A stretch of 52,354 nucleotides of DNA from an uncultured Planctomycetaceae bacterium. GTDB lineage: Bacteria; Planctomycetota; Planctomycetia; Planctomycetales; Planctomycetaceae. The stretch spans positions 1-52,354 of the forward strand of contig CAZVJA010000010.1 of the NCBI GenBank assembly GCA_964626885.1, in the 5' to 3' direction. A model generated the notes under the pieces. That model saw nothing but the letters and a program-made list of their open reading frames with translations, searched no databases and had not been told where the DNA came from. The translations under genes were made by a program, and so were the position numbers. Positions 27,167 through 28,510 of this stretch are shown here, piece by piece; position 1 is the first letter of the stretch; each line of letters opens with the position of its first letter.

Positions 27167-27185
27167 TGCATTAGACATTCGTCAT
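27167..27185 (+). repeat. dispersed repeat GCATTAGACATTCGTCATT, copy B
   Basis: Identical to 25955-25973. Lies 24 bp upstream of the tRNA at 27209. Confidence 0.7.
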
Positions 27186-27208
27186 TCGGATTTCGTGCTT
27201 TTGATGTT

Positions 27209-27284
27209 GGCCGGGTACGCAATCTGGTAAAGCGGCGAGGTCGAGAGTCTCGTGATTCTGTGGGTTCGACTCCCACCCTGGTCA
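27209..27284 (+). tRNA. tRNA, anticodon uncertain (possibly GAG)
   Basis: Acceptor GGCCGGG/CCTGGTC with two G-U pairs. T arm GTGGG-TTCGACT-CCCAC. The anticodon arm does not fold cleanly. Confidence 0.4.
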
Positions 27285-27308
27285 CTGCCTTGTTGATTTG
27301 GCGAAAGG

Positions 27309-27380
27309 GGTTCCGTGGTCCAACGGCGACGACACCAGCGCGACATGCTGGAGACGATGGTTCAATTCCATCCGGAATCA
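27309..27380 (+). tRNA. tRNA-Val (GAC), paralog of the 26276 tRNA with a swapped anticodon arm
   Basis: Acceptor GGTTCCG/CGGAATC. D arm identical to 26276 (TGGTCCAACGGCGACGACAC). Anticodon arm CCAGC-GCGACAT-GCTGG. T arm GATGG-TTCAATT-CCATC. Confidence 0.6.
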
Positions 27381-27393
27381 CTCGAAGAGTTAC

Positions 27394-27479
27394 GGAAGGG
27401 AGCCGGATACGGGTAGCCGGGCCGGTTTGCTAAACCGTGCGGCCAATCGGTCGTGTGAGTTCGAATCTCATCCCTTCCG
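27394..27479 (+). tRNA. tRNA-Ser (GCT), type II
   Basis: Acceptor GGAAGGG/CCCTTCC. D arm CCGG..CCGG. Anticodon loop TTGCTAA. 16-nt variable arm. T arm GTGAG-TTCGAAT-CTCAT. 86 nt. Confidence 0.65.
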
Positions 27480-27593
27480 CTTTTGACGGTGGAGTGATCG
27501 TCTGTAGGAGCAATTGCCGGGGCACGCTTCGCTTTGCCTCGGCCACCCGCTGCCGTGGAGGAAATGCGTCATCTCGAACAAAAAGTGGAACCG

Positions 27594-27666
27594 GGCCTGA
27601 TGGTGAAACGGAAGATCATCTCTCGCTTCTAACGAGAGGTTCCAGGTTCGAATCCTGGTCGGGCCG
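27594..27666 (+). tRNA. tRNA-Arg (TCT)
   Basis: Acceptor GGCCTGA/TCGGGCC. Anticodon arm TCTCG-CTTCTAA-CGAGA. T arm CCAGG-TTCGAAT-CCTGG. Confidence 0.7.
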
Positions 27667-27700
27667 CTTAATTTGTGACTGCAAGGAGACCTTTTCTGGA

Positions 27701-27729
27701 ATTCGTCATTCGTGCTTCGTCATTAGGAA
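27701..27729 (+). repeat. partial copies of the ATTCGTCATT repeat family (ATTCGTCATTCG ... CGTCATTAGG)
   Basis: Shares ATTCGTCATTCG with copy B and CGTCATTA with copy A. Confidence 0.5.
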
Positions 27730-27739
27730 ATTCCTTTGA

Positions 27740-27813
27740 CGGTGTCCGTGGTGTATGCGGTAGGCATACCTGCCTGTGAAGCAGGAGGTAAGGGTTCAAC
27801 TCCCTTCGGACAC
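27740..27813 (+). tRNA. tRNA-His (GTG) with encoded G-1
   Basis: G-1 followed by acceptor GTGTCCG/CGGACAC and a C73 discriminator. Anticodon arm CCTGC-CTGTGAA-GCAGG. T arm AAGGG-TTCAACT-CCCTT. Confidence 0.75.
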
Positions 27814-27823
27814 CCTTCGCTAG

Positions 27824-27841
27824 AAATGACGAATGTCTAAT
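27824..27841 (-). repeat. inverted copy (CATTAGACATTCGTCATT on the minus strand) of the dispersed repeat, copy C
   Basis: Plus-strand AATGACGAATGTCTAATG is the reverse complement of copies A and B. Lies 38 bp upstream of the HNH start. Confidence 0.7.
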
Positions 27842-27878
27842 GTCGAATGACAAATGGAAAGCGTGAAGGAGGCAAAGT

Positions 27879-28475
27879 ATGGTGAGTGCAGCACTCGCAC
27901 GGCCGACGTTGATGCTCAACCGGAACTGGCAGCCGGTGGGGGTCGCGACGGTGGCCCGCGCGCTGGTGAAGGTCTGGAACGACACGGCGCGGATCGTCGA
28001 CCCGATTGACTATTGCCAGTACACCTGGGACGACTGGTCGCGGCTGCGCCCGAGCGGCGACGAGCCGTTCATCCAGGCACTGCAGTTTCGGCTGCGCGTG
28101 CCGGAAGTGATCGCGCTGACGAAGTACGATCGCGTCCCGGCCAACGCGGTGACGTTCAGCCGGCGAAACGTGTTCAAGCGTGACCGGTTCACGTGCCAGT
28201 ACTGCGGTGGGCAGCCGGGGAGCGATGAATTGACGATCGACCACGTCCTTCCGCGGTCGCAGGGTGGGGTTTCGACCTGGGACAACTGTGTCCTGGCCTG
28301 CCTCAACTGCAATGCACGGAAGGCCGACCGGACGCCGGATCAGGCCCACATGCCGCTGCGGCGGCGGCCGGTGCGTCCGGCATGGCGGCCGATGTACGCG
28401 GCTCACGGTGCCCGCATCGACAGTTGGTCGAAGTTTGTGAGTGAGGCGTACTGGACGGTTCAGCTGGAAGAGTAA
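27879..28475 (+). CDS. HNH endonuclease
   Basis: CQYCGG...DHVLPRSQGGVSTWDNCVLACLNCNARK, a canonical HNH zinc-finger nuclease motif. 198 aa. Confidence 0.85.
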   Translation: MVSAALARPTLMLNRNWQPVGVATVARALVKVWNDTARIVDPIDYCQYTWDDWSRLRPSGDEPFIQALQFRLRVPEVIALTKYDRVPANAVTFSRRNVFKRDRFTCQYCGGQPGSDELTIDHVLPRSQGGVSTWDNCVLACLNCNARKADRTPDQAHMPLRRRPVRPAWRPMYAAHGARIDSWSKFVSEAYWTVQLEE

Positions 28476-28480
28476 GTCCC

Positions 28481-28510
28481 GCTGCTCATGAGGTATTCCA
28501 TGAGCAGCGC
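28481..28510 (+). terminator. intrinsic terminator-like hairpin after the HNH gene
   Basis: Perfect 10-bp stem GCTGCTCATG/CATGAGCAGC with an 8-nt loop, followed by GCTTTC. Starts 6 bp after the HNH stop. Confidence 0.5.

Follow-up and report, generated by a model that had tools for sequence, protein, structure and literature searches.

Long arrays of tRNA genes have been described in several phyla, including Planctomycetes, with genes of HNH endonucleases "linked or embedded". Here we analyse one such array with an embedded HNH gene, found in a 52,354-nucleotide (nt) stretch (below, the window; contig CAZVJA010000010.1, G+C about 58%) from an uncultured Planctomycetaceae bacterium. The original prediction for this DNA held that HNH genes inside tRNA clusters are a hallmark of phage and homing-type mobile modules. 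That HNH genes accompany tRNA clusters had already been published: they recur beside or within long arrays of cyanobacteria and mycobacteria, and in phage arrays (PMC8421152, PMC5966550). Among mycobacterial arrays, which reside in genomes, plasmids and mycobacteriophages, HNH is the most widespread protein gene in or beside the array (Morgado and Vicente 2018, PMC5966550). The HNH gene all8564 of Nostoc/Anabaena PCC 7120 lies just upstream of a 24-tRNA array on plasmid delta; translational stress induces it together with the array (PMC8421152), and TrcR represses it along with rtcB and a slipin gene (PMC10272220). The role of the nuclease in long arrays is a question raised by both PMC8421152 and PMC5966550, where homing was suggested by analogy with SegB of phage T4, a free-standing nuclease gene in a tRNA region that, as cited in PMC8421152, was proposed to drive the inheritance of the neighbouring tRNA genes. 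The association of HNH genes with arrays is known; what is new here is a locus in which the nuclease has a distinctive embedded position. In our estimate (probability of about 60%), this HNH gene belongs as a fixed component to an array operon on the chromosome, where selection maintains it at the junction of tRNA-His and tRNA-Trp, and is not a fresh homing cassette, while the short repeats in the surrounding spacers are unrelated passengers.

By the definition of PMC4758250, a long array (L-array) has 20 or more tRNA genes, with no fewer than 2 of them per kb. The array of the window has about 5.6 tRNA genes per kb (32 in 5.7 kb), all 32 of them on the plus strand, in an order without periodic repetition and so close together that they could make up a single operon. 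Its tRNAs pair off one by one with those of four related contigs (L002, L004, L006 and L008, where L-numbers denote related contigs compared with the window), at 73-96% DNA identity per tRNA. The array is flanked by a gene of the SPFH/Band_7 family, which serves as a chromosomal anchor common to many related genomes and is 67% identical to its orthologue in L002. Two independent assemblies match the part of the window around the nuclease gene, one over positions 26993-28893 at 100% identity and the other over 27622-28613 at 99.5%.

The HNH gene had been predicted to be canonical and to be the only co-oriented protein gene of the array. The former is borne out by a 198-amino acid (aa) open reading frame (ORF) with a Pfam HNH match at E 8e-15; consistent with the latter, the sole other array ORF with a Pfam match codes for pentapeptide repeats on the opposite strand. 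The HNH motif contains two CxxC pairs of zinc ligands, and the catalytic and zinc residues (C106, C109, D121-H122, N136, C141, C144 and N145) are invariant in 13 relatives that span planctomycetes, phage, cyanobacteria and actinobacteria, with no inactivating change in the catalytic motif. The best sequence and fold matches of residues ~95-165 are the HNH domains of IscB/Cas9, McrA and the Gme nicking enzyme; the CxxC...DH...N...CxxCN architecture is common to the window protein, Cas9/IscB and the Geobacter Gme HNH nicking endonuclease (PDB 4H9D). By sequence and by an AlphaFold model (mean predicted local distance difference test score, pLDDT, of 76.5), the protein is a zinc-finger β-β-α-Me nuclease of the Cas9/IscB/McrA HNH type, and it is apparently active. 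The likeness to Cas9/IscB is at the domain level only: the window protein stands alone and has neither RuvC nor guide-RNA-binding parts.

PHROG 16726 matches residues 10-188 of the protein, and members of the family throughout share the N-terminal domain, which spans roughly 100 residues. There are more than 5000 homologues; the best 120 of them are 68-80% identical, nearly all 198 aa long, and all named records among these 120 belong to Planctomycetota. The window protein aligns with all8564 at 36% identity over residues 3-167 (BLASTP E 6e-30), N-terminal domain included, which places both in the same full-length family; HNH proteins of mycobacterial arrays are less than 41% identical to it. 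Viral contigs in IMG/VR contain no close relative (best 38-51%), and a phage origin of the gene was rejected for this reason. Two phage relatives lie among tRNA genes, that of Mx1 between two tRNA-Leu genes and that of S-CRM01 inside a tRNA region; five of the eight phage and plasmid relatives examined (including those of Tsukamurella, Bosea, Persicobacter and Atu_ph07) have no tRNA gene within 6 kb. A family-wide link of these nucleases to tRNA arrays is therefore only partly true.

The position of the HNH gene is nearly constant. Seven contigs were fetched via HNH homologues, and in all seven the gene follows tRNA-His(GUG) and, wherever the array continues, precedes tRNA-Trp(CCA). As this sample had been selected by HNH itself, a second one was drawn through the flanking Band_7 gene, giving 80 orthologous loci picked blind to HNH. 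HNH-bearing arrays are present at 31 of these loci. tRNA-His lies upstream of the nuclease gene in 29 (the other two are contig edges), and tRNA-Trp lies downstream, also in 29, the next tRNA in the remaining two being tRNA-Arg. At three loci of the 80, arrays without HNH have tRNA-His followed directly by tRNA-Trp, with spacers of 10 nt (L186), 10 nt (L202) and 64 nt (L165), so that HNH is present in 31 of the 34 arrays still holding the His/Trp region. One array in this sample is rearranged, and about 10 of the 80 loci have no array despite several kb of upstream sequence. L001, whose array is decayed and down to four tRNA genes, still retains HNH and the preceding tRNA-His. The arrays of L001, L004 and L008 sit in other genomic contexts.

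The HNH gene is evidently under purifying selection, as indicated by ratios of nonsynonymous to synonymous substitution rates (dN/dS) of 0.14-0.24. Orthologues in related arrays are 63-80% identical and 197-205 aa long, and 28 of the 29 complete Band_7-anchored copies are intact (197-205 aa); the degeneration expected of a homing endonuclease after fixation, with pseudogenes and relaxed selection, is not seen. Distances between HNH proteins follow those between the adjacent Band_7 proteins (Mantel r 0.75, a value reached by 0 of 2000 permutations), which suggests mostly vertical descent of HNH within the Band_7-linked clade. The Band_7 proteins of the three loci with an empty junction lie 0.17-0.23 away from their nearest HNH-bearing counterpart: L186 and L202 make up a Band_7 clade of their own and L165 is at 0.17, so these HNH-less arrays do not seem scattered among close HNH-bearing relatives. 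A fixed position, intact reading frames, a dN/dS of around 0.2 and divergence in step with a chromosomal gene at the flank are together unlike a recently mobile homing cassette, and the homing-type mobile module that had been proposed for this locus is not supported by the comparison.

In the 31 distinct arrays for which spacers were measured, HNH is preceded by tRNA-His in all 31 and followed by tRNA-Trp in 29. The distance from tRNA-His to HNH has a median of 28 nt and is 35 nt or less in 18; the median from HNH to the next tRNA gene is 44 nt. Shine-Dalgarno-like motifs are found in 24 of the 31 orthologous spacers, and a promoter scan found no promoter-like site in the His-HNH spacer of the window. 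A hairpin begins 4 nt past the HNH stop codon and ends 5 nt short of tRNA-Trp. It had been taken for a strong terminator: the hairpin is real, with a stem of 11 bp, one more than predicted, but its tail is CTTTC with no U-run, and the terminator scan made no call. With the U-tract missing and tRNA-Trp starting 5 nt on, a simple strong terminator is unlikely, and this candidate function was rejected. A hairpin occupies the same place after HNH in all 28 orthologous spacers of up to 200 nt (-17 to -57 kcal/mol), and the sequences of these hairpins are unrelated. Most lineages have no room for a promoter before HNH or behind the hairpin, and the most economical interpretation is therefore a joint tRNA-mRNA-tRNA transcript that tRNA-processing enzymes cleave. 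The HNH gene would then be transcribed within the polycistronic precursor of the array, and once the usual processing enzymes had cut out tRNA-His and tRNA-Trp, a short HNH mRNA with a Shine-Dalgarno leader would be left. The hairpin ahead of tRNA-Trp may act as a protector of the 3' end or a partial attenuator, not as a full terminator, and the nuclease would be produced along with the array tRNAs, as in Anabaena under translational stress.

The L-array of Anabaena resembles this locus: a long series of tRNA genes runs in one direction, accompanied by an HNH gene from the same full-length family, and the HNH protein is likewise strongly conserved within its phylum. Both rtcB and a slipin/SPFH gene belong to the TrcR regulon; in the window the array has an SPFH gene at its flank, and rtcB is nearby in L002. 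Linkage to rtcB is rare (2 of 49 loci), and in the window there is no rtcB or rbfA. No TrcR-type operator or RHH regulator was seen. The two systems differ in gene order, as cyanobacterial HNH genes lie upstream of the array operon and have their own mapped promoter, whereas the planctomycete gene is embedded between His and Trp, usually with no room for one. They also differ in location: the Anabaena array is plasmid-borne, whereas the planctomycete one is chromosomal and descends mostly vertically within its clade. Horizontal movement is presumed for the mycobacterial arrays, which are associated with plasmids and phages. Dozens of planctomycete lineages with such arrays provide a natural data set: the nuclease gene is pinned to one junction and under purifying selection, in most cases lacks room for its own promoter and is followed by a conserved 3' hairpin, and there are a few clean empty sites; the empty His/Trp junction and the tRNA-mRNA precursor are concrete substrates for tests.

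Table 1. Features of the tRNA array, its nuclease gene and its surroundings (window coordinates)
Feature	Position	Strand	Remarks
Long tRNA array	23572..29296	+	32 co-oriented tRNA genes, all 20 amino acids; ARAGORN; Rfam tRNA 32-65 bits
Pentapeptide-repeat ORF	24664-25410	-	Within array; Pfam E 1.7e-16
Heptad site A	25947..25965	+	19-mer copy, CATTAGA CATTCGT CATT
Heptad site B	27168..27186	+	19-mer GCATTAGACATTCGTCATT, between tRNA-Met and tRNA-Leu(gag)
Heptad site C	27699..27724	+	Degenerate copy TTCGTCA TTCGTGC TTCGTCA TT, 18 nt upstream of tRNA-His
tRNA-His(GUG)	27742..27815	+	Adjoins HNH gene upstream; ARAGORN, Rfam
Heptad site D	27825..27856	-	Five CATTNNN heptads, in tRNA-His to HNH spacer
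Shine-Dalgarno AAGGAGG	27866..27872	+	6 nt ahead of ATG; read from sequence
HNH endonuclease gene	27879..28475	+	N-terminal ~100-aa domain, then zinc-finger β-β-α-Me nuclease domain
Hairpin	28480..28509	+	11-bp perfect stem 28480-28490 / 28499-28509, 8-nt loop; -19.9 kcal/mol, z -3.5
tRNA-Trp(CCA)	28515..28585	+	Usual neighbour downstream of HNH; ARAGORN, Rfam
SPFH/Band_7 gene	29792..30898	+	Flanks array; Pfam Band_7 6e-31

As first claimed, the locus was an HNH gene "bracketed" by special repeats, a finding that is otherwise ordinary. The repeats are real, as none are expected by chance (0 in 100 shuffles), and their predicted positions were off: the 19-mer thought to be at 27167-27185 is site B of Table 1, the third copy, given as 25955-25973, is site A, and the inverted copy lies within site D at 27825-27843 on the minus strand with one mismatch (a perfect 18-mer at 27825-27842), not at 27824-27841. 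Both arms of the inverted pair are upstream of the HNH ORF and enclose the genes for Leu-gag, Val-gac, Ser-gct, Arg-tct and His-gtg, so the nuclease gene is not bracketed. Site D stretches the His-HNH spacer of the window to 63 nt, against a typical value of about 28 nt.

The prediction also saw in these repeats possible sites of cleavage or recombination, or array-specific regulatory boxes, and held that an abundance of the 19-mer throughout the genome would mark it as generic. In spirit, this is what was found: a scan of a species-representative genome collection, with the source genome not among the matches, recovered the exact 18-mer in at least 120 stretches from many unrelated genomes of Planctomycetota, Verrucomicrobiota, Bacteroidota and others, where about 17 are expected by chance under a uniform-composition estimate. 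Among the 80 matches listed, 32 are from Planctomycetota, 35 from Verrucomicrobiota and 13 from other phyla, with several stretches per metagenome-assembled genome. The 852 kb around the matches contain only four tRNA genes, all more than 500 nt away from the 18-mer, and a single HNH-like ORF, some 3 kb from it. The 18-mer sits within tandem CATTNNN heptads in runs of 3-15, mainly of CATTCGT and CATTAGA units, with TTCGTCA as the dominant unit and CATTGGT (TTGGTCA-type) in the same runs. Many of these runs form a polar palindrome: of 130 sites, 62 have the inverted arm upstream and one has it downstream. The motif is absent from the eight loci tested (seven orthologous arrays and the Nostoc array) and therefore cannot be a conserved target or operator of the nuclease; heptad clusters are rare in the Band_7 sample (1.0 per 100 kb), and the 18-mer is nearly absent from viral contigs. 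The promoter scan found no sigma-70-like promoter overlapping the heptad sites, and a promoter role was rejected on that ground; array-specific sites were rejected on the strength of the collection scan, the missing tRNA or HNH linkage in the 852 kb and the absence of the motif from the related HNH loci tested. Judged by this distribution, the 19-mer repeats are generic, lineage-variable spacer elements of the CATTNNN family, unrelated to the nuclease, which would settle in non-coding spacers.

No Rfam family covers the heptad elements, and we found no paper with their sequence or on heptanucleotide repeats in Planctomycetes. Cyanobacteria reportedly contain short tandemly repeated repetitive (STRR) heptamers, such as TTGGTCA. 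The window 19-mer is likewise made of tandem 7-nt units and is intergenic, multi-copy and present in many genomes; the heptads differ from STRR in the dominant unit, in the hosts, which are mainly Planctomycetota and Verrucomicrobiota, and in that about half are polar palindromes. An unlikely but notable possibility is that the heptads, which are identical across phyla, are a phylum-spanning, actively generated class of hairpin elements with a dedicated trans-acting factor. Heptads of one kind or another also occur next to other HNH genes. Inverted repeats of TTCGTCA units flank HNH in L184 (2674-2812), the hairpin after HNH in L217 (8945-9030) is itself built of GGAATGC/GCATTCC units, and in L006 (6107-6211) the HNH-flanking inverted repeat is of a different heptad family, with GGCTTGA/CCTCAAG units.

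Several observations weigh against a fixed operon member with passenger repeats. The fold search with the N-terminal domain gave no informative match. The His-HNH spacer exceeds 35 nt in 13 of the 31 arrays, reaching 214 nt, and might accommodate a promoter there, and we infer co-transcription, processing and the role of the hairpin from spacing alone. CATT-type heptad hairpins adjoin HNH in two further lineages (L184 and L217/L218). The empty His-Trp junctions of L186, L202 and L165 fit insertion or excision of a discrete cassette, and a few pairs are discordant, with L158, for example, at a Band_7 distance of 0.22-0.24 from L002/L218 and an HNH distance of 0.09, which could reflect lateral exchange. 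The latter two points are what an active free-standing homing endonuclease would leave behind, if it cut the HNH-less His/Trp junction and was copied in by repair, like T4 SegB, with the array spreading along. Presence and absence are indeed precise at one junction, and homing is the hypothesis already put forward in the literature. The array as a whole is also absent or decayed in the close relatives L140, L163, L214 and L001; upstream of Band_7 it is missing entirely from the first three, whose Band_7 is only 6-8% diverged from that of the array-bearing L139, L154, L157 and L206, and recombinase or transposase genes stand beside the arrays of L008 and L001. Against this, HNH persists in nearly every array with a His/Trp region and is intact in nearly every complete copy, dN/dS stays near 0.2 at protein divergences as high as 44%, HNH distances track Band_7, HNH-less arrays do not seem interspersed with close HNH-bearing relatives, and the viral contigs hold nothing close. 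SegB is a GIY-YIG nuclease, unlike HNH, and homes in phage crosses, whereas the planctomycete gene is fixed, intact and co-diverging with its host. A nuclease pinned to one junction, under selection and mostly promoter-less across lineages argues against a purely selfish, short-lived homing element; the fixed, selected operon member appears to fit the planctomycete data better, and homing, kept as a rival by the empty junctions and discordant pairs, we regard as unlikely. As to what the maintained nuclease does, we see roughly even chances that it cuts DNA in a way that promotes the maintenance of the array by recombination, or its spread as a unit, and that it serves the host in a stress response. 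A distinct and rather doubtful proposal is that the array, HNH and, in some lineages, rtcB form a "translation reset" module, in which, under stress, HNH would cleave RNA of the translation machinery, or else cut DNA at tRNA genes, while the array supplies replacement tRNAs and the mRNA is freed by tRNA punctuation, with no DNA homing involved.

The remaining alternatives concern the repeats and the kind of nuclease. The heptad hairpins beside HNH in other lineages and the predicted pairing of sites C and D leave room for a local RNA-level effect: in the lineage of the window, the two sites might pair in the precursor and form a long stem around tRNA-His that modulates the processing of this tRNA or the freeing of the HNH mRNA. 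Each arm measures 24 nt, the two are 79% complementary and 100 nt apart, the minimum-free-energy fold of 27690-27865 joins C to D around an intact cloverleaf (z -3.5), and heptad arrays elsewhere typically form hairpins. We nevertheless consider this role improbable, as the polarity (CATT arm first) is that of just 1 in 130 sites elsewhere, the arrangement is not conserved in orthologous arrays, and the pairing is purely a thermodynamic prediction. It is still harder to see the heptads as operators, or as cleavage or recombination sites, specific to the array and HNH. All four sites of the window do fall in the array, with three no more than 700 nt upstream of HNH, heptad hairpins adjoin HNH in L184 and L217/L218 as well, and short direct repeats control the L-array promoters of Anabaena (PMC8421152). 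Yet the 18-mer occurs in many phyla with no tRNA or HNH link and is missing from the orthologous arrays tested, the sites overlap no sigma-70-like promoter, and the operator described in Anabaena (TGTAGTAT-like, PMC10272220) has an unrelated sequence. Finally, the protein could be an McrA-like restriction or defence nuclease that is in the array by chance, as might be suggested by the McrA label that JGI gives to some relatives and by PADLOC matches to HNH of the PtuB and REase types. These matches are at the domain level only, the similarity being limited to an HNH core of roughly 50-60 residues; the arrangement of McrA and type IV restriction enzymes, a modified-cytosine-binding domain at the N-terminus and HNH at the C-terminus, was not found in the protein, there are no defence-system partner genes, and the same array position across dozens of lineages is not a coincidence, which makes this origin hardly credible.

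Other genes and elements are variably associated with these arrays. In L008 (3897-6116) serine recombinase genes immediately follow the array, and in L001 (584-1918) a transposase adjoins the decayed four-tRNA array. L140 keeps a single tRNA-Cys, which suggests that its array was deleted recently. Just upstream of tRNA-His and HNH, three arrays (L004 4989-5669, L006 5298-5984 and L169) have an ORF of 226-228 aa that matches no Pfam family and is absent from the window. The array of the window has tRNA-Phe at both ends, and insertion into a tRNA-Phe gene was considered and rejected, as the two copies are dissimilar and not att-like duplicates. Its spacers are mostly shorter than 130 nt, the larger ones being of 752 nt (with the antisense pentapeptide-repeat ORF, whose longest reading overlaps tRNA-Asn), 699 nt (with HNH), 163 nt and 187 nt.

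A terminator-like hairpin with 15-bp arms (23515-23545), followed by TTTTTCG, lies 26 nt ahead of the first tRNA of the array, and the approximately 620 nt upstream of it contain no convincing ORF. A near-perfect hairpin of 120 nt (25966-26086; -75 kcal/mol, z -6.5), without a match in Rfam, is located between heptad site A and tRNA-Ala. Similar CCCCTCTCCCC...GGGGAGAGGGG hairpins are found in array spacers of two lineages (window ~26664-26691 and L001 ~6643-6672) and may represent another small repeat family.

Several tRNAs of the array score low in Rfam (32-38 bits). The top score, 64.8 bits, belongs to a tRNA-Ile with anticodon UAU (24056-24127), which is kept in related arrays (L002 2622-2694, L004 410-481 and L152 4019-4091); in bacteria, AUA is usually read by a lysidine-modified CAU tRNA, not by UAU.

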